Notes: a model not told the origin generated them from the sequence alone. A DNA stretch of 64,000 nucleotides from a virus (IMGVR_UViG_3300045988_152944); one strand, 5' to 3'. Shown: positions 115 to 28,553, numbered from the stretch's first letter. Made by a program: numbers and translations.

Positions 115-612
115 CTACAAAAGTTTTGCGTATTGATTATCACTCACCAGCGTGACTCCCAAGACATCGTCATATCTCGAAGGACGATTGGGAATGTACC
201 GTCCAAATTTAATAATAACGTTTGTGTACTGTTGAAGTTGATAATAATCGTGACTAAACCGCGTGCTACGCACTTCTTCCTCTGTATACCCTGTGTAGAT
301 TACGACATCGGCGTTGCTGTTGTAGGCATTCCGCAGTAGGTCGATAAATTCGATGATTTCAGTAATTTGAAGGAAGGGTTCAAGACCACCAAAAACTACA
401 GCATCGGTAAACGGATTTGCAAGAAAACGAAAGATGATGTCATCAGTTGGAATTGATTTAATGGGGCATTGTCCCCACTCCGCGTTTTGACACGTGGAGA
501 TAGGGAGATTATTTTCAGTGCAACATTTGAAATCACACATACACGCCCCGATGAACATGGCGGGCTTCTTATAGTTGACGAAATCTTCGTCTTTGATAAA
601 CTTAATTTTCAT
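115..612 (-). CDS. nrdG: anaerobic ribonucleotide reductase activating protein (radical SAM, NrdG-like)
   Basis: The 165-aa product has an N-terminal Cys cluster (GACMCDFKCC) and a GGLEPF (GGEP-like) motif. Size and position match NrdG, and it overlaps the 3' end of nrdD by 11 nt. Confidence 0.8.
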   Translation of the reverse strand: MKIKFIKDEDFVNYKKPAMFIGACMCDFKCCTENNLPISTCQNAEWGQCPIKSIPTDDIIFRFLANPFTDAVVFGGLEPFLQITEIIEFIDLLRNAYNSNADVVIYTGYTEEEVRSTRFSHDYYQLQQYTNVIIKFGRYIPNRPSRYDDVLGVTLVSDNQYAKLL

Positions 613-3508
613 TCGAATTCACCGAAAACCAGTCGCGTTTTGCAAATTCCGCCTTGCGTTCTTTGGAATATGTTTTTTCCGGCGTCAGGAATCCGACAAT
701 GCGTTGGTAGGTTGTTTTGACGGGTTCTCCACAGATTGGGCAGATGTCGCCATAGAACCCGTGGTTATTTTTACACGCGCTGATGCGGGTGCAGAAGGCG
801 AAATACGGGACTCCAAAGTCGGCCACAGTGTTGAAAAGTTTCCACGCTGTGTCGAAGTCTGAGAGGGGCGCGTCGATATTAATATGCGCAATTGAACCAC
901 CACTGCAAGCCGCGTCGAGAGTTGAGCTCGCTATCATTTTATTATGGAGCGAAGTGTGCGTTGCCAGCGGAATCCATTGGTTACCGTAAAGAGGAAGATC
1001 ATACTCACCATGTTTGTACAAGAGTTTGTCTTTTTCTTGTAAAATAGTCGCGCAGCGTTCAGCGGGCACTTGTTCAATATTGATTTGATAATCTACCTTT
1101 TCTGTTTGGATAAACAGGTCTTTTGCGTCATGAATTGCAGCGAGGATTTCGGTGGCAAATTCAAGACCACTTGGCGTGTAATTCGCGTTACCAAGGGTGT
1201 CGACATATGTGCCGTTTAAGTGCTTTACTGCCTCCCATAAACCCGTGATTCCGATTGTGTTATATTGGGACTTAAGGTGAATGAGATCGAGTGTGTAATT
1301 GGGGAGCAATCCTTTTTCAATATTGCGAGCAATGATTGAACGCACACGGTCAAGCACTCGTACACACAGATAAACCTTCGATTTGAGCAAGTCAAGATAA
1401 TAGGCTTTAATTTGTGCTTTGTTGGTGATGTGGTTTTTCTCGCTCCATACTTTTGTAGCATATGCGATGCGAGCTAAGTTGATTGTGTTAACTTTGACAG
1501 AGCCGACCTCGAGGGCGGTGCCGCCAATGGAATTAAAATACCCGAGATTTTTAACATCACTCACAAGGCGACAACAGTTTGAAAGACTGGTAACATCTTT
1601 ACTTATAAAGAAGTTGCTGTCGGCCCATTTCATATTATGTTTGCAACACCATTTGGCAAAATCTTCATCAACGAATTTGCCGTCGATACGAAGAAGAGCA
1701 TAGGTGAGCACCGGGAACGTCATCATATTGATTGAACGAATTTCACTAACCTTTTCCATAAAGGCTTTTTGATATTCAATGAGTTCGTCGATGTAGTCAA
1801 TCACACACGTTCCGTCAGGATACTCTACGCCGCCGAACAGCGCCATAAGGTATTCACGGTCAAAGATGGAAAAGTTTGTAAATGCACTTTGTGTAACGCG
1901 CAAATACGGCTGATTTAGTTTATAAATAATACGCTGGAATTCTTGGTCGCGGTAATATTCGGGAGAATGGAGATAGTATTTGTTCTCACAATCTTTCTTC
2001 CAGAAATAAAAACTATAAATTAAGAAGTTGGGAAGACCCACAGCGCCGGAAGTTCTATTTGCGCACCAGCTCACCATTTCCCCGACGAAGTCTGTGTAAG
2101 TTGTTAGATGTTGGGGTGGCTGTGCGTTGAAATTGTTAACAAAGAATAATCCTCTATTTACGAGTGGAGTTAGATCATAAGCGAAACAGTTGTGAGTTAA
2201 AACATTCCCTTCAAGTGTAAATGAATGGGTTTTTTTCGCAACTGCGCAATATACATCGTCTATGATACCTGTGTCTTCTACCGATTTTACAATCCAGGCA
2301 CGATGGTGTCGCCCCTTATTTACCGTTGCGAGCCACCGTTCTCTGTGTGTTGGACGAATAAAGAAATTTTCTCTTAGATATTCGCTGGATATTGTTAAAA
2401 CATAAACCCTTCCCATTTCATGTGTGAGATTGCTCACTCTGTCTTGATAACGAATTTTATTTACTGGCATTCCCAACACGCATAAGATATTTTGCGCACA
2501 CTCGAGGTATTCCTTATTAGTAGAACTGAGAGTACATCTCCCCTTTGTGTCGACACATCCATCAGCGGCAAAATAACCCGCAAGCCAGCCATATAAATAA
2601 CCCACCGACTCAGAGAGGTCTGGTAATTTGGTGAAAGCGTTGGGGACGCCCCTGGTTGTTATTTCATACTCAGGGCCTCTTACCTTTGCAGGAGTGAAAT
2701 ACGGAAGTAATGCAATTTTGTCTCCACAAAAGTTAACCCTACGCTGTGGGCCTTTGTCGCCGTCACCAATAAAAAACCCATGTGCCACACCAAAAGGGGA
2801 GGGCTCTACGGCAGCCCATGTTTTGGTTGTATTAAAAGGAATTTTCATACCAGGGGTTAACCGATCGGTTTCAACTTCGGTAGCCATATTACGTTTGTTA
2901 ATAGTAAACCATTTGTGGTTACCAGTTACATAAAACACTTGTTCTGTGTCGTATCTTGTAAGTGTAAGTTTTTTTAGTTCTTGTTTACCAAACCATTGAA
3001 CGGTAGCCTCTTCCCATCCATGGTTTTTATTGAGCACAGATACCGTCGAACCATTTAACTCATCCAACCGACGTAACCCCTGTTTTGTCATGATTCTTGT
3101 GTCACCACTAAAACAATAGGAACGGAACGTGGCCGAACAAAAATCGTGCAAATAAAAACCTCCGTTCCACTCTTCTTCTGCCCATTTTTTGGCTTCTTTA
3201 AGACCGTATTTCTTTTTCATTTCATAAAAAATCTTATGAAAGGCCAATAATTTAGAATGTGGCTTTGACATTTCGTTTTCGAGCGTCGTAATATCTTTAT
3301 GGTCTATATTGGCGTTGCTGTCAATAGAAGCATCGGCAACTGAGGTAGACTTCACAAACTGATCGATGAACTCTGTATAATTAATTTGTTTGTCAGCTAA
3401 GCCATTGAGGTAACACATTTGGTCACCGTATTTTCTATTGAGGTATTTCAATGTAGTGACAAAATCTTTGTCGAGATTGATATTAATATGTAGCTTTCGT
3501 TTTGTCAT
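602..3508 (-). CDS. nrdD: anaerobic (class III) ribonucleoside-triphosphate reductase NrdD, interrupted by an intein
   Basis: The ORF encodes 968 aa. The C-terminus carries a Zn ribbon (CKNNHGFYGDICPICG) and a glycyl-radical motif (YQRIVGFLTP). The extein is about 659 aa once residues 132-440 are removed. Confidence 0.9.
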   Translation of the reverse strand: MTKRKLHININLDKDFVTTLKYLNRKYGDQMCYLNGLADKQINYTEFIDQFVKSTSVADASIDSNANIDHKDITTLENEMSKPHSKLLAFHKIFYEMKKKYGLKEAKKWAEEEWNGGFYLHDFCSATFRSYCFSGDTRIMTKQGLRRLDELNGSTVSVLNKNHGWEEATVQWFGKQELKKLTLTRYDTEQVFYVTGNHKWFTINKRNMATEVETDRLTPGMKIPFNTTKTWAAVEPSPFGVAHGFFIGDGDKGPQRRVNFCGDKIALLPYFTPAKVRGPEYEITTRGVPNAFTKLPDLSESVGYLYGWLAGYFAADGCVDTKGRCTLSSTNKEYLECAQNILCVLGMPVNKIRYQDRVSNLTHEMGRVYVLTISSEYLRENFFIRPTHRERWLATVNKGRHHRAWIVKSVEDTGIIDDVYCAVAKKTHSFTLEGNVLTHNCFAYDLTPLVNRGLFFVNNFNAQPPQHLTTYTDFVGEMVSWCANRTSGAVGLPNFLIYSFYFWKKDCENKYYLHSPEYYRDQEFQRIIYKLNQPYLRVTQSAFTNFSIFDREYLMALFGGVEYPDGTCVIDYIDELIEYQKAFMEKVSEIRSINMMTFPVLTYALLRIDGKFVDEDFAKWCCKHNMKWADSNFFISKDVTSLSNCCRLVSDVKNLGYFNSIGGTALEVGSVKVNTINLARIAYATKVWSEKNHITNKAQIKAYYLDLLKSKVYLCVRVLDRVRSIIARNIEKGLLPNYTLDLIHLKSQYNTIGITGLWEAVKHLNGTYVDTLGNANYTPSGLEFATEILAAIHDAKDLFIQTEKVDYQINIEQVPAERCATILQEKDKLLYKHGEYDLPLYGNQWIPLATHTSLHNKMIASSTLDAACSGGSIAHINIDAPLSDFDTAWKLFNTVADFGVPYFAFCTRISACKNNHGFYGDICPICGEPVKTTYQRIVGFLTPEKTYSKERKAEFAKRDWFSVNSNEN
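2189..3115 (-). mobile_element. intein (309 aa) with a double-motif LAGLIDADG homing endonuclease, inside NrdD
   Basis: Block A is CFSGDTRI (Cys1 codon at 3113-3115) and block B is VTGNHKW. Two LAGLIDADG motifs are present (HGFFIGDGD and LAGYFAADGCV). The C-terminal VLTHN is followed by the +1 Cys (CFAYDL). Confidence 0.85.
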
Positions 3509-3537: not shown

Positions 3538-3570
3538 AAAAAAGGGGTTGCCCTTTTATAAGGGTCAACC
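3538..3570 (-). terminator. hairpin plus T-run between the glutaredoxin-like gene and nrdD (terminator or attenuator)
   Basis: Minus strand reads GGTTGaCCCTT-ATAA-AAGGGCAACC followed by CCTTTTTT. The stop codon of the upstream gene lies inside the stem. Confidence 0.5.
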
Positions 3571-3765
3571 TCTGGTTTTCAGCCATTTGATGGCTTCATT
3601 GAAATCATAAGATGTTCCGTCGACAACCAAGTGAGGTGCTGAATTATATTTCAATGCTTTCATTTGTTCGATGTCGTCAACTACTGTAAAATCTACACCC
3701 GCCTGGGTAAGTTTTGTCTCAAGCATTTTACACTTGGGACAGTGTGTGCTGTAAAGAATTGTCAT
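3565..3765 (-). CDS. small glutaredoxin/NrdH-like redoxin
   Basis: The 66-aa product has a CPKC active-site motif at residues 9-12 within a thioredoxin-fold-sized protein. AAGGAG RBS is present, and the gene sits directly upstream of nrdD. Confidence 0.75.
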   Translation of the reverse strand: MTILYSTHCPKCKMLETKLTQAGVDFTVVDDIEQMKALKYNSAPHLVVDGTSYDFNEAIKWLKTRG

Positions 3766-3790
3766 AATAAATTCTCCTTAAAAATTATTT

Positions 3791-3867
3791 TGGTCGGGGT
3801 GACACGATTCGAACGTGCGACCTTATGGTCCCAGGCCATACGCGCTCCCAGCTGCGCTACACCCCGA
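3791..3867 (-). tRNA. tRNA-Pro(UGG): tRNA-Pro (anticodon UGG), CCA encoded
   Basis: Manual fold: TCGGGGT acceptor, GTTCGAATC T-loop, anticodon arm TATGG-CCTGGGA-CCATA. Position 33 reads C rather than the near-universal U. Confidence 0.8.
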
Positions 3868-3886
3868 AGAAAAAGGGGCCGCCCCT
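3868..3886 (-). terminator. short GC hairpin plus T5 immediately upstream of tRNA-Pro (weak terminator or processing signal)
   Basis: Minus strand reads AGGGG-CGG-CCCCT followed by TTTTT. The stem is only 5 bp. Confidence 0.3.
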
Positions 3887-3894
3887 ACTTCTGA

Positions 3895-4089
3895 CATCCC
3901 GGATTTTGGGAGCATTTTCTGGGTAGCCCCGTTCAAAAATTTTGTAGTAGAACCGTTTCCAAACTACTACCATACTCTTGTACTTTGAGTATCTTGTTAC
4001 ACTTAACTTACCGCGAATTAGTTAGTAACCCTTGTCCTCTACGACACACACGATTTTTCTCAGTCGGGCGACACCTTGTCGTGTCGCCG
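3895..4089 (-). ncRNA. unclassified structured spacer between tRNA-Leu and tRNA-Pro
   Basis: No ORF and no tRNA fold. Three clean hairpins are present: GTAGTAG/CTACTAC (3944-3970), ATACTC/GAGTAT (3972-3992) and GGCGACAC/GTGTCGCC (4067-4088). Confidence 0.25.
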
Positions 4090-4173
4090 TGGTGCGACCA
4101 GTGAGACTCGAACTCACACATCTGTGATACCAGCTCCTAAGGCTGGCGCGTCTGCCAATTCCGCCACGGTCAC
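4090..4173 (-). tRNA. tRNA-Leu(UAG): tRNA-Leu (anticodon UAG), class II, CCA encoded
   Basis: Manual fold: GTGACCG acceptor, GGCGGAATTGGCAGACGC D arm, anticodon arm CCAGC-CTTAGGA-GCTGG, long variable arm, GTGAG-TTCGAGT-CTCAC T arm. Confidence 0.85.
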
Positions 4174-4179
4174 ATATTG

Positions 4180-4344
4180 TTATTGTTTGCGTTTCCCAAA
4201 CCACATCTCTGCTGCATTTTCAGGCAGCGGAGATGGGGTGGCTGGTGTAATATCTTCGGTATACACCATACTTGATTGTAGTGCTTCTTTAATCTCTTTG
4301 ATTTTCTTAGGGTCTGTAACAATTACAGGCTTATCGTCAATCAT
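4180..4344 (-). CDS. small hypothetical protein (54 aa) embedded in the tRNA cluster
   Basis: ATG at 4344 is preceded by CAGGAGG with a 5-nt spacer. The longer ORF-track model (to 4443) runs through a tRNA and is not credible. Confidence 0.5.
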   Translation of the reverse strand: MIDDKPVIVTDPKKIKEIKEALQSSMVYTEDITPATPSPLPENAAEMWFGKRKQ

Positions 4345-4364
4345 ACGAACCTCCTGAGTTATAG

Positions 4365-4449
4365 TGGCTACCGAGGAGGGACTTGAACCCCCAAGACTTT
4401 CGTCGCCAGAATCAAAATCTGGTGCGTCTACCAATTTCGCCACTCGGCA
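4365..4449 (-). tRNA. class II (Leu-like body, long variable arm) tRNA carrying a UUG (Gln) anticodon
   Basis: Manual fold: TGCCGAG-TG-GCG-AAATTGGTAGA-CGC-A-CCAGA-TTTTGAT-TCTGG-CGACGAAAGTCTT-GGGGG-TTCAAGT-CCCTC-CTCGGTA-G-CCA. All stems pair. The isotype is ambiguous. Confidence 0.75.
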
Positions 4450-4470
4450 TTATCTAAAATATTATTCTAT

Positions 4471-4545
4471 TGGCAGGCCCTCTAAGATTCGAACTCAGAT
4501 CTTACGGTTTTGGAGACCGATATTTTACCATTAAACTAAGAACCT
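4471..4545 (-). tRNA. tRNA-Trp(CCA): tRNA-Trp (anticodon CCA), CCA encoded
   Basis: Manual fold: AGGTTCT acceptor, anticodon loop CTCCAAA, CTGAG-TTCGAAT-CTTAG T arm. There is one T:T mismatch at pair 27-43. Confidence 0.8.
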
Positions 4546-4548
4546 ACG

Positions 4549-4625
4549 TTGCCCAGATGACGGATTTGGGACCGCTCTGTCTACTCTTGGAATAGCCGTG
4601 CTCCGAATTACACTACCACTGGGCA
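4549..4625 (-). pseudogene. degenerate tRNA-like element (possible tRNA pseudogene; anticodon-like CAA)
   Basis: A 7-bp acceptor-like stem (TGCCCAG/CTGGGCA) encloses 62 nt. The anticodon-like arm is CTAT-TCCAAGA-GTAG. There is no canonical T loop (TCCCAAAT), the D arm is poor and no CCA is encoded. Confidence 0.3.
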
Positions 4626-4989
4626 TGAATTAAAGGCTGGATCTTATTCCATTTAACTACTGCTTAACTCCGCCGAGTCTGGTGTTGGACATATCTAGAA
4701 TACCAACGTCGTAGCACCTTATATTTTAAGGGAATAGGCCACTCACCCTCATTGCGCCTCTTGCCGTACCTCGCGCTTTGGACGAATCTTTGTTCGACAG
4801 TCAGCCTCGTTTGCCCAATTAACAATGTTAGAAACAAGACAATCTAACGTAAATATCGGCTTTACCCGATTTGTGTGGTGTAGGGTAAAATCAACCACGC
4901 CCTCCAACATTTACCCAAGCAGGAGTTTTTACAGCACTTTCACTGGTGTCAGCATATCCTAGATTTTAGTGGCGGTATGCAACCACAAG
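4626..4989 (-). ncRNA. unclassified ~365-nt non-coding, hairpin-rich region inside the tRNA cluster
   Basis: No ORF of 60 aa or more and no tRNA fold. Mutually exclusive pairings are possible: TTTACCC at 4861-4867 and 4910-4916 against GGGTAAA at 4883-4889. Confidence 0.3.
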
Positions 4990-5064
4990 TGGCAGGCGTA
5001 AATAGATTTGAACTATTACTAGCAGAGTCAAAGTCTGCTGTGCTGACCATTACACTATACGCCA
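4990..5064 (-). tRNA. tRNA-Gln(UUG): tRNA-Gln (anticodon UUG), class I, CCA encoded
   Basis: Manual fold: TGGCGTA acceptor with unpaired U1:U72 and G73, anticodon arm GCAGA-CTTTGAC-TCTGC, AATAG-TTCAAAT-CTATT T arm. Confidence 0.85.
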
Positions 5065-5086
5065 TTGATATATAACACAAAGAGCC

Positions 5087-6022
5087 CTACTTGTAATTAA
5101 CAACAACCAACTCTTTGATTTGCCCACGTGCATCGCCCTTACTGTTGATGTTACGACGAGCTAAAACCTCATGAACGTACAGTCCATCTGTGCTTTCATA
5201 TTTATCACGAAGAGAAGTGTCATTTTCGTCAGCCGAATTCGACAACATCGTCGCTGCACCGGTTTTACCACTTTTGATAAAAAACTCACACAGGCGGTTT
5301 TGTTCTTCGTCACCGAACCCATCTTTGTCGTAAGCGGTAAAAGAGTTTTTACCTTTGAGAGGACGGTAAGGGGGATCGAAGTAGACAAAAGAGCCTTTCT
5401 CGATGTCCCACTCTACTTCAGTGAAATCACCACGGTAAATATCCACCTTTTGAAGAATGTCCGCGCATCTCTTGAGGTTGTCAGCATCGCAAATCGTTGC
5501 TGTTTCATATTGACCAAACGGAACATTGAATTCACCCTTACTGTTGACTCTATACAAACCATTAAAACAGGTTTTGTTTAGAAAAATAAACTCAGCCGCT
5601 TTTTGGTAACAATTTGTATGGGAGAGCTCGGTGGTGTTGAACGATTGCCTTGTCAACAGGTAAACCCCTTTCTTACCATCCAAGGTCGCCTGTTCGTCGT
5701 ACTTCGTTTGAAGCGTACGTAATTCATCTATCAACCTTTGATGATTTCTCTTAAGGCACTGATACACATTAATCAGTTCAGCATTACGGTCGCAAATAAC
5801 GCCGCGACGGAACGGATAACGTTGCATCATATAAAAAAGCATTGCCCCACTGCCAACAAGTGGCTCCACATATGTTGTGTATTCCCCTGACTTCACTCTA
5901 GTGTAGAAGTCTTCGCCTGATTTAGACACCGGAAGAAGTTTATCCAATTGAGGAATGAGTTGGGTTTTACCACCTGCCCACTTCACAAAGGGGCGAGCAA
6001 AAAGTTTTTTCTGTTTAGCCAT
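5087..6022 (-). CDS. dam: DNA adenine methyltransferase (Dam-like, D12 class N6-A MTase)
   Basis: The 311-aa product has an N-terminal FVKWAGGK SAM-binding motif and a catalytic DPPY motif (YFDPPYRP). Confidence 0.9.
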   Translation of the reverse strand: MAKQKKLFARPFVKWAGGKTQLIPQLDKLLPVSKSGEDFYTRVKSGEYTTYVEPLVGSGAMLFYMMQRYPFRRGVICDRNAELINVYQCLKRNHQRLIDELRTLQTKYDEQATLDGKKGVYLLTRQSFNTTELSHTNCYQKAAEFIFLNKTCFNGLYRVNSKGEFNVPFGQYETATICDADNLKRCADILQKVDIYRGDFTEVEWDIEKGSFVYFDPPYRPLKGKNSFTAYDKDGFGDEEQNRLCEFFIKSGKTGAATMLSNSADENDTSLRDKYESTDGLYVHEVLARRNINSKGDARGQIKELVVVNYK

Positions 6023-27738: not shown

Positions 27739-28374
27739 TTATTCAGAAACTTTCAGCAAGTCACGTTCTTTGATTTTAACAATAATGCGCTTGCCTTGAT
27801 GATCGTAAATTCTGACCGCCGGTACGCACACCAATCCCTCTTGCCTTGTTGTTCCTTTTTTGCAGTGCGGGCTTAATGGATTGCTACTGACAATTTTCAA
27901 CGCCTCATCAATGCCGCTCACTTTAAAGAACTCGACTGTTTCTACACCGAACTTGTCGAAGATTTCTTTGATTATGAGTTTGTCGAGATATGTGCCGTTG
28001 ACCATAACATCAAAGCCGATGAGCCTCTCTTCCCCGCCGTATAGCCCGCCTTGAATTTTACCGCCGTAACATTCCATAAACAGAATCACGAGTTTGTCGC
28101 CGAACATTTGCTCGAACACGACCTCACTATCCGCAAATTTTCCCGTAAGCGCGGCGAGAACCTCTTTCGGGAAATTTGTGCGCTCGGTTCTGCCATGAAA
28201 GGCAACTCGATGCCCGTCATACTCGACTTGAACATTCGTACCGTCGATTTTCTCGGATGCAATCCACTCGTTGTCTTTCAAATAGTCCACATATGGATTG
28301 AAAAACTCCTTGCGATAAGTCTTTGTTACATTGTCAAACTTGTATAATGTTTCGATTTTTTGATATTCTGTCAT
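27739..28374 (-). CDS. RNA ligase (Rnl2-like nucleotidyltransferase)
   Basis: The start was moved to ATG 28374, which has ATGA coupling and a GAGGTGG RBS. Motif I is EKIDGTN (KxDG). Size and motif spacing fit phage RNA ligases. Confidence 0.65.
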   Translation of the reverse strand: MTEYQKIETLYKFDNVTKTYRKEFFNPYVDYLKDNEWIASEKIDGTNVQVEYDGHRVAFHGRTERTNFPKEVLAALTGKFADSEVVFEQMFGDKLVILFMECYGGKIQGGLYGGEERLIGFDVMVNGTYLDKLIIKEIFDKFGVETVEFFKVSGIDEALKIVSSNPLSPHCKKGTTRQEGLVCVPAVRIYDHQGKRIIVKIKERDLLKVSE

Positions 28375-28553
28375 TCTTCCACCTCTGCTTGTTTGCACAC
28401 GTCGCAACGAATATACCCCCAATCATCATCTCTGATATTGCCATACGAAGTTAATTCTCGGTCAAAGAGATTGCACTTGTTGCCATATCTATGCGCACAG
28501 TCCCTGCAATTTTTCGGCACTTTGATTTTAATTTCAACTTTTATTTTCGGCAT
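28371..28553 (-). CDS. small zinc-finger protein (60 aa)
   Basis: The start was moved to ATG 28553 (MPKIKV), preceded by GGAGGTG. Motif is CRDC...C...CDVC. Confidence 0.55.
   Translation of the reverse strand: MPKIKVEIKIKVPKNCRDCAHRYGNKCNLFDRELTSYGNIRDDDWGYIRCDVCKQAEVEE

Follow-up and report, generated by a model that had tools for sequence, protein, structure and literature searches.

The window analysed here, a stretch of 64 000 nucleotides (nt) from a virus (IMGVR_UViG_3300045988_152944), is part of an uncultured tailed phage and carries, within a cluster of tRNA genes, an 85 nt gene that joins the body and long variable arm of a tRNA-Leu to the anticodon loop and acceptor end of a tRNA-Gln. 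ARAGORN calls it at 4365-4449 on the minus strand as tRNA-Gln(ttg). An initial annotation, made from the sequence alone, had described it as such a chimera; its position on the minus strand and the pairs G2.U71 and C3-G70 are additions to that description. Read from the minus strand, the first half of the RNA is UGCCGAG UG GCG AAAUUGGUAGA CGC A CCAGA UUUUGAU UCUGG, and directly after the anticodon arm the second half continues as CGACGAAAGUCUU GGGGG UUCAAGU CCCUC CUCGGUA G CCA. The gene and its parts are as follows.

4365..4449, minus strand: long-arm tRNA-Gln(UUG), 85 nt, class II-shaped, CCA encoded (ARAGORN, Rfam, minimum free energy cloverleaf, covariation)
4443..4449, minus strand: 5' strand of the acceptor stem, UGCCGAG, positions 1-7, the same as in class I tRNA-Gln of related phages
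4424..4440, minus strand: D arm of the tRNA-Leu type, GCG-AAAUUGGUAGA-CGC, identical to that of leuW and of Vequintavirinae tRNA-Leu(UAG)
4406..4422, minus strand: anticodon arm CCAGA-UUUUGAU-UCUGG, with the anticodon UUG at 4415-4413; the stem is that of leuW and the loop that of glnU
4393..4405, minus strand: 13 nt variable region consisting of C, a GAC-GAAA-GUC hairpin and UU, with the architecture of leuW
4376..4392, minus strand: T arm GGGGG-UUCAAGU-CCCUC, also found in phage tRNA-Leu(UAG) such as those on contigs L435 and L428
4365..4375, minus strand: 3' strand of the acceptor stem CUCGGUA (4369-4375), G73 (4368) and CCA (4365-4367), read directly from the sequence

The Rfam tRNA model (RF00005) matches the gene with 50.5 bits (gathering score 29; E = 2.2e-9) and aligns a long insertion in the variable region. 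The class II cloverleaf is both the minimum free energy and the centroid fold, at -27.4 kcal/mol, and the same cloverleaf is drawn by ARAGORN. No different fold or anticodon emerged, and ARAGORN and Rfam both agree with the clean 85 nt class II cloverleaf that had been proposed initially, including the D stem of 3 bp with the D loop AAAUUGGUAGA, the 13 nt variable arm with its GAC/GUC stem, here found to be closed by a GAAA loop, and the CCAGA/UCUGG stem that places UUG in the loop UUUUGAU. The folding energy is ordinary for the composition when compared to shuffled sequences (z = -0.98) and alone proves nothing; unremarkable folding z-scores are common among tRNAs. The gene has the features expected of an elongator tRNA, namely a score above the RF00005 gathering score, U8, A14, G18G19, U33 and a T loop of the form UUCRANY, as well as those of a class II tRNA, i.e. 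the 3-bp D stem and a variable region that exceeds 10 nt and folds into a stem-loop.

The initial annotation had suggested a search for the same chimera in related phages, and pattern scans of IMG/VR and metagenome contigs located the same 85 nt gene, or close variants of it (83-85 nt), on 8 and 17 contigs, respectively; two of the 17 seemingly duplicate IMG/VR contigs. Hence, about 25 contigs, all from uncultured phages and several of them labelled human gut, carry the long-arm gene; the patterns fix the D arm, so that the counts cover that D-arm type, and two of the tRNA collection scans give figures to be read as 'at least'. The 10 distinct long-arm sequences align unambiguously. When the cloverleaf was applied to them, all 227 of 227 stem cells contained standard pairs, while control registers slid by 1-3 columns paired in 43-54 % of cells. 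Compensatory double changes were seen in four pairs (4:69, C-G to G-C; 6:67, A-U to G-C; 27:43, C-G to U-A; and the middle pair of the variable arm, A-U to G-C), and the remaining two pairs of the variable arm vary to wobble only. Through these changes the variable-arm hairpin is retained in all 10 variants, always with a GNRA loop (GAAA or GUAA), and no variation is seen in U1-A72, G2.U71, C3-G70, G73, the D arm or the anticodon loop. The combination of covarying stems and invariant positions excludes a pseudogene, and the long-arm gene is a real class II tRNA under selection. It occupies the place of the Gln tRNA in about nine different phage tRNA arrays, and no other Gln tRNA is present in the stretch covered of three contigs (L300, L314 and L323). 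The array on L323 also includes a tRNA of the amber suppressor type with the anticodon CUA (2180-2254, minus strand), which ARAGORN labels 'Pyl', and, at 2086-2176 on the minus strand, a long-arm tRNA that has the anticodon ACU.

In IMG/VR, no sibling with the same variable and T arms and a different anticodon was found, and a megablast search of 3700-5200 against 50 697 phage records gave partial matches to tRNA-Leu genes only, with the long-arm tRNA in none of the records. A scan of bacterial genomes for the Leu D arm combined with the Gln loop revealed no such tRNA among the 120 matches listed. Three of the bacterial matches (L123, L141 and L176) are tRNA-Leu genes in which tRNA sequence is lost right after the loop bases CUU, as would be expected of tRNA-Leu(UAA) genes with a group I intron. 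In the literature, searched both by subject and with the literal sequence, no account of a long-arm tRNA-Gln was found.

The body of the long-arm tRNA is that of a tRNA-Leu(UAG). Positions 6-46 are those of the Escherichia coli leuW tRNA-Leu(UAG) and positions 7-46 those of Vequintavirinae phage tRNA-Leu(UAG), in both cases apart from A35U and G37A. The leuW tRNA was also the top E. coli match of the long-arm tRNA in 5412 genomes (81 % identity), and the nearest neighbours outside the family, in a collection of 352 distinct tRNAs, are Leu(UAG) tRNAs. The variant on contig L361 has a 65 nt core that departs from the phage tRNA-Leu(UAG) on L428 at four places (positions 35 and 37 and a single base in each of the variable and T loops), and it retains pairs 4-7 of the E. 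coli leuW acceptor stem with only pairs 1-3 and the discriminator changed. The variable arm, with a 3-bp stem and a GNRA loop in a total of 13 nt, has the leuW architecture, and the length range in the long-arm family (11-15 nt, mode 13) agrees with the mode of 13 for Leu and not with the 14-23 nt, mostly 16-18, of 65 distinct Ser tRNAs. The core elements of tRNA-Leu are all present, namely A14, A15-U48, G18G19, A20a and the Leu-type D arm, and the U read as position 48, the final base of the variable region, is invariant in the long-arm variants. With home-made profiles, built with a Gln training set that is enriched for the same acceptor stem, the gene scored 48.7 bits as Leu and 37.5 as Gln, or 42.2 versus 21.6 with the anticodon masked; as controls, the true Leu of the window scored 59 (Leu) and 8 (Gln) and its true class I Gln 9.6 and 52. 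The gene departs from a bacterial tRNA-Leu in having G73 for A73, and U35 and A37 for A35 and G37. It is closer to Leu than to tRNAs that share its anticodon, and its anticodon is substituted, the pattern that defines an alloacceptor-remolded tRNA. The tRNA-Leu(UAG) found nearby at 4090-4173 has a near-identical D loop, as had been noted initially, with two differences. However, that gene is less similar to the long-arm gene than the leuW-type Leu tRNAs are, and both a recent duplication of it and a role for it as direct parent were rejected.

Contig L361 carries, at 119-195 on the minus strand, a further tRNA of 77 nt with the anticodon GAA (Phe), in which the Leu-type D arm GGUGGAAUUGGUAGACAC and A73 are combined with a short variable loop and with the T arm of the long-arm Gln gene (GGGGGUUCAAGUCCCUC). 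The scaffold may here have undergone a further shift.

The loop and the ends are of the Gln type. The loop UUUUGAU, assigned from the outset to the tRNA-Gln form, is identical to the loop of E. coli glnU and differs from that of leuW only by A35U and G37A; it provides the YUG anticodon with U35 and G36, together with A37 and U38. The acceptor end, likewise judged Gln-like initially from U1-A72 and G73, combines U1-A72, G2.U71, C3-G70 and the discriminator G73 with an encoded CCA. The tRNA has G73, a weak 1-72 pair and G10-C25, which mark a substrate of glutaminyl-tRNA synthetase (GlnRS), and these are invariant in the 10 long-arm variants. On three contigs (L017, L350 and L365), the long-arm gene is accompanied by a class I tRNA-Gln(UUG) in which the UGCCGAG/CUCGGUA stem, G73 and CCA are the same. 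A scan of IMG/VR for this stem found nine further tRNAs, all of them class I tRNA-Gln (8 UUG, 1 CUG) with varied bodies; contigs with the stem on a class I tRNA-Gln include L017, L191, L194, L216, L218 and L252. In phage tRNAs the UGCCGAG/CUCGGUA stem is thus coupled to Gln anticodons, every tRNA found with it having one. The chimera of Leu body, Gln loop and Gln acceptor end is thus borne out by the leuW core and the class I Gln stem, though the gene does not have the architecture of a class I Gln tRNA, as the variable arm is of 13 nt rather than 4-5 nt and the D arm is of the Leu type rather than GCCAAGCGGUAAGGC.

Among about 85 distinct tRNA sequences that share the Leu-type D arm GGCGRAAUUGGYAGACGC, loop type and acceptor end change together in an almost complete association. 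The 56 distinct sequences (124 loci) with UAG and G37 all have G1 and A73 and all are long-armed, with C72 in 55 and U72 in one. UUG with A37 is found in 29 distinct sequences (60 loci), and 27 of these 29 have G73, the 1-72 position in the 27 being U1-A72 in 22, A1-U72 in three and mismatched in two. The two exceptions are a short form with U1.U72 and U73, and L366 with G1-C72 and A73. The latter, at 2501-2587 on the minus strand, is a long-arm tRNA of 87 nt with UUG and A37, a C2.C71 mismatch and an imperfect anticodon stem, and may represent an intermediate form, a mistranslator or a gene in decay. The UUG set includes 18 distinct short-arm forms of 75-78 nt with the same D arm, several with the GGGGG/CCCUC T stem and with U-A, A-U or a mismatch at 1-72, and since these share the D arm the design is widespread in uncultured phages, with and without the arm.

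The long-arm gene lies in a co-oriented cluster in the order class I Gln (5064-4990), Trp, long Gln, Leu(UAG) and Pro. The other members of the cluster are as follows.

4990..5064, minus strand: class I tRNA-Gln(UUG) with U1.U72, G2-C71, G3-C70 and G73, the co-resident isoacceptor (ARAGORN; Rfam 63.9 bits)
4471..4545, minus strand: tRNA-Trp(CCA), 21 nt upstream of the long-arm gene (ARAGORN, Rfam)
4090..4173, minus strand: tRNA-Leu(UAG) with G1-C72 and A73, neighbour of the long-arm gene (ARAGORN, alignment)
3791..3866, minus strand: tRNA-Pro(UGG), the last gene of the cluster (ARAGORN, Rfam)

The class I tRNA-Gln(UUG) that the initial annotation had placed at 4990-5064 was thus recovered by ARAGORN. 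Near-identical tRNA clusters are present on contigs labelled human gut metagenome. Open reading frames (ORFs) on the minus strand cover 91 % of the window and are co-oriented with the long-arm gene; a scan for promoters and terminators near that gene was uninformative, with 3 promoter-like sites versus 2.6 expected. An ORF of 54 amino acids at 4180-4344 (minus strand), between the long-arm tRNA-Gln and the tRNA-Leu(UAG), has an ATG preceded by AGGAGG. A 177 nt stretch (4547-4723) is present in the window and on L332 and missing from the close relatives L034, L025, L016, L304 and L336. It includes a degenerate tRNA-like remnant of 72 nt at 4551-4622 (minus strand), which lacks a normal T loop and which ARAGORN reports, as 'Leu(CAA)', only when the threshold is lowered. 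Between the class I tRNA-Gln and the tRNA-Trp, about 265 nt (4724-4989) are 94-95 % conserved in relatives; they are overlapped by a single short ORF (60 amino acids, opposite strand) and gave no Rfam match at E <= 1.

Products encoded elsewhere in the window include NrdD/NrdG, a Dam methylase, RecD2, ClpP, a DnaE-type polymerase, DnaB, a primase, and tail and head proteins. The NrdD gene (602-3508, minus strand) is split by an intein with a LAGLIDADG homing-endonuclease domain; a radical SAM activase resembling NrdG is encoded at 115-612, and 3565-3765 codes for a glutaredoxin. No close cultured relative was found, the best protein identities being about 40-41 % and the replication genes pointing to Bacillus SPbeta-group and Clostridium phages. 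When the class I tRNA-Gln of L017 was compared by blastn to phage records, mainly tRNA-Gln bodies of Listeria and Bacillus phages were matched, which is weakly informative for the host. In the 25 long ORFs of the window, at a G+C content of 41.6 %, 527 of 680 Gln codons (78 %) are CAA.

The published identity rules allow the sequence of the long-arm tRNA to be read position by position. E. coli GlnRS reads U35, G36, the 1-72 and 3-70 pairs, G73 and the 10-25 pair (PMC9976931). E. coli leucyl-tRNA synthetase (LeuRS) ignores the anticodon and the long arm and needs A73 and the core formed by the D and T loops, and G73 is an antideterminant against LeuRS and TyrRS (PMC9976931). Seryl-tRNA synthetase (SerRS) depends on the long arm and tertiary shape, with contributions from G73 and the acceptor stem, and C2-G71 of tRNA-Leu is an antideterminant against it (PMC9976931). 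The long-arm tRNA has all of the Gln elements other than E. coli-type pairs 2-71 and 3-70, and has lost A73, the key Leu element. It does not resemble a tRNA-Ser in its 13 nt variable region, its Leu-type D arm or the pairing of G2 with U, though G73 is present. According to a study cited in a review (ref. 82 in PMC9976931), an amber tRNA-Ser, a class II tRNA, acquired Gln identity by two changes of acceptor pairs, and hence a long arm in itself is no block to GlnRS. The long-arm tRNA itself presents G10-C25 and G73 on its Leu-type body. GlnRS binds the inner, D-arm side of the tRNA L and leaves the variable region in solvent.

We consider that the long-arm gene probably encodes a functional elongator tRNA charged with Gln, which derives, through an alloacceptor shift, from a tRNA-Leu(UAG) of the leuW type and supplies a second Gln(UUG) tRNA for the decoding of CAA. 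The initial annotation had left the charging identity ambiguous between a long-arm tRNA-Gln, a tRNA that misincorporates Leu or Ser, and a decoy; the comparative evidence now favours the first. In the proposed course of events, a leuW-type tRNA-Leu(UAG) would have been the starting gene, and its core (the D arm, anticodon stem, 13 nt variable arm and T arm) would have been kept while the identity positions were replaced, with A35 becoming U to give the anticodon UUG, G37 becoming A and A73 becoming G. The top three acceptor pairs would have changed to U1-A72, G2.U71 and C3-G70, resulting in the stem of the class I tRNA-Gln of related phages. Charging would be by the host GlnRS or, where the host has no GlnRS, by a non-discriminating GluRS together with GatCAB, a route that the invariant U1-A72 also fits. 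Once charged, the tRNA would decode CAA as well as, through wobble, CAG, and as a second tRNA-Gln(UUG) of unrelated structure it would add capacity for the strongly preferred CAA; given the share of CAA among the Gln codons, such extra capacity is a plausible benefit. In E. coli, leuW adjoins glnU and glnW in one tRNA operon, so that in this genome, at least, the two parental types lie side by side. A single recombination between two genes was nevertheless rejected as the sole origin, as Gln-type and Leu-type segments alternate four times and one crossover cannot produce such a tRNA. Most simply, a Leu(UAG) gene would have been duplicated and then altered by point changes, and gene conversion may have brought in the acceptor stem of a class I tRNA-Gln.

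Several observations weigh against a tRNA charged with Gln in this way. Its G2.U71 and C3-G70 are not the G2-C71 and G3-C70 of E. coli tRNA-Gln; they are also found in 10 class I phage tRNA-Gln genes, but the argument for a functional stem then leans on genes that are themselves predicted by sequence. All of the core LeuRS elements (A14, A15-U48, G18G19 and A20a) persist, and G73, the long arm and the loss of C2-G71 are steps toward recognition by SerRS too. The sequences in which loop and acceptor end are coupled are related to one another and the counts are not of independent events, and L366 joins UUG to G1-C72 and A73. Many Bacillota have no GlnRS, and the alternative GluRS/GatCAB route would require acceptance of a Leu-type D arm. 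Where GlnRS is present, altered determinants may, as in E. coli, cost up to 10^5-fold in catalysis (PMC9976931).

The presence of two unrelated Gln(UUG) genes in one cluster could also be accounted for if the tRNA is charged with Gln and its Leu-like body has been selected to escape a factor of the host or of a competitor, such as a nuclease or toxin, that recognizes the tRNA-Gln body, the two genes then being a form of bet-hedging. This is a possible but rather unlikely explanation. It refines the purpose of a remolded tRNA-Gln and does not contradict its chemistry. It draws, circumstantially, on the proposal that phage tRNAs evade host tRNA nucleases (PMC10264068), on the differences between the two Gln tRNAs of the window in the body and at loop positions 32 and 38, and on the unexpected variable arms of other phage tRNAs. 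The window also encodes a protein of 227 amino acids with an RNA ligase domain (27739-28422, minus strand; PF09414, E = 4e-13), as do phages that repair cleaved tRNAs, and its occurrence beside tRNA genes hints that tRNA damage and repair may matter to the phage. However, no nuclease that recognizes the tRNA-Gln body was identified in this analysis, the loop is the ordinary one of E. coli glnU and offers no escape from loop-specific nucleases, and codon supply, with 78 % CAA, accounts for retention without recourse to defence.

Explanations in which the tRNA is not charged with Gln fare worse. As LeuRS and SerRS ignore the anticodon, either might charge the tRNA, perhaps in part (LeuRS by way of the intact Leu core, SerRS by way of G73, the long arm and G2), and insert Leu or Ser at CAA and CAG, much like nev-tRNAs and allo-tRNAs, making Gln codons ambiguous during infection; G73 is a determinant for SerRS, the C2-G71 antideterminant is lost, and L366 is a family member that has UUG with Leu-type ends. 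We regard this as improbable, because A73, crucial for LeuRS, has been replaced by an antideterminant, the variable arm (3 bp, 13 nt) is below nearly all of the 65 distinct Ser tRNAs sampled, and the D arm, which according to the literature helps to set the orientation of the variable arm, is of the Leu type. Furthermore, position 35, position 37, position 73 and pairs 1-3:70-72 have shifted jointly to the Gln pattern, none of which a mis-charging tRNA would need, and the gene sits in the Gln slot of the arrays. It is very doubtful that the RNA acts outside translation, whether by binding an anticodon nuclease or a synthetase in the manner of a decoy or sponge, or in the role of primer or regulator. 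In principle, an RNA with an intact LeuRS core and G73 might be bound by LeuRS yet stay uncharged, but the features needed for translation (7/3/5/5 stems, U33, UUCAAGU, G18G19 and the encoded CCA) are all conserved, the acceptor end matches that of Gln tRNAs of the working type, and the combination of an exact Gln acceptor stem, A37 and U38 would be needless in a decoy. It is hardly credible that the gene is a decaying duplicate, a tRNA-Leu pseudogene with chance mutations in the anticodon. Phage tRNA clusters turn over fast and the degenerate remnant at 4551-4622 lies in the window, but the long-arm gene is found on about 25 contigs in nine array contexts, its stem changes are all compensatory or wobble, and its identity positions are invariant.

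Departures from the usual architecture were seen in other phage tRNAs. Long tRNA-Asn(GUU) genes of 85-86 nt, with a variable-arm hairpin (e.g. GAGC-GAAA-GCUC) and G73, are found in Erwinia phage Hena1 (L001:2165-2250, minus strand), in Klebsiella phage KpS8 (L002:2267-2351, minus strand) and on L192 (4425-4510). The 5' half of the Hena1 tRNA-Asn is 92 % identical to that of the ordinary class I E. coli tRNA-Asn, and this long arm looks as if a hairpin had been added to a class I body, which would be a different route to a long arm. ARAGORN also identified long tRNA-Asp(GUC) (L299:2390-2478, L303:3631-3718, L311:4091-4175 and L324:2558-2646) and long tRNA-Pro(UGG) (L303:3531-3621 and L324:2744-2832) on environmental phage contigs; these are 85-91 nt long, with variable regions of about 20 nt, often with GAAA loops, and the contigs also hold short-arm members of the Gln family with the Leu-type D arm. 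The reverse departure is represented by 18 distinct phage tRNA-Leu of class I length (74-79 nt), with a variable region of 5-7 nt and nearly all with A73, on contigs that include L010, L192, L216, L408, L415 and L486.

Alloacceptor remolding and anticodon shifts have been described in metazoan mitochondria (PMC4783518), in eukaryotic nuclear genomes (PMC3923123) and for the yeast mitochondrial tRNA-Thr, derived from tRNA-His (PMC3113583). The phage tRNA is like these in being closer to another acceptor family (Leu) and in that substitution of the anticodon and identity changes appear to have switched its isotype. It differs in that it is found in phage genomes, in that the boundary between class II and class I has been crossed with the long arm kept, and in that changes at the acceptor end are visible and coupled to the anticodon over the set of about 85 distinct sequences. 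The nematode nev-tRNAs and bacterial allo-tRNAs also have a long arm with the anticodon of a normally class I amino acid. On the account given in PMC6041473, they retain the Leu or Ser identity of the body, are leucylated or serylated in vitro and are potential mistranslators, whereas in the phage tRNA the identity of the body is not retained, A73 and G1-C72 having been replaced and a Gln-type end installed. The amber tRNA-Ser engineered to Gln identity, as cited in PMC9976931, likewise has a class II body, U35 and altered 1-72 and 3-70 pairs, but it is a laboratory construct with a Ser body and CUA, and the phage tRNA is a natural conserved gene with a Leu body and UUG. The tRNA-Tyr, which is class II in bacteria and class I in archaea and eukaryotes (PMC9976931), is a further case in which the long arm is not bound to one amino-acid identity over evolution, though there the arm was lost within one identity while in the phage tRNA the identity changed and the arm stayed. 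Phage tRNAs proposed to withstand host anticodon nucleases (PMC10264068) are also isoacceptors that differ from the host tRNAs for the same codons; those have point mutations in the anticodon loop, whereas the long-arm Gln has an ordinary loop and a foreign body.

In textbooks the long variable arm is confined to Leu, Ser, bacterial Tyr and Sec, a rule that a conserved natural long-arm tRNA-Gln would break. The family is, in addition, an experiment of nature in identity swapping, for which the parental Leu type, the long-arm Gln form and its short-arm Gln relatives are at hand, and in which the changes fall at positions that biochemists have mapped as Gln and Leu identity elements. They form a short list of nucleotides that may suffice to shift a tRNA from LeuRS to GlnRS, and the gene may provide a natural scaffold for orthogonal or chimeric tRNAs. 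It is also a pitfall for annotation, as the anticodon indicates Gln and the similarity Leu. For the biology of these phages, the gene is an entry point to the question of why gut phages retain two unrelated tRNAs for one codon. If the Leu-like body were an adaptive disguise against nucleases, toxins or sequestering proteins directed at tRNA-Gln, which we think unlikely, it would be one case of a wider remodelling of tRNA architecture by phages, with the long-arm Gln, Asn, Asp and Pro tRNAs and the short-arm Leu tRNAs as its examples.

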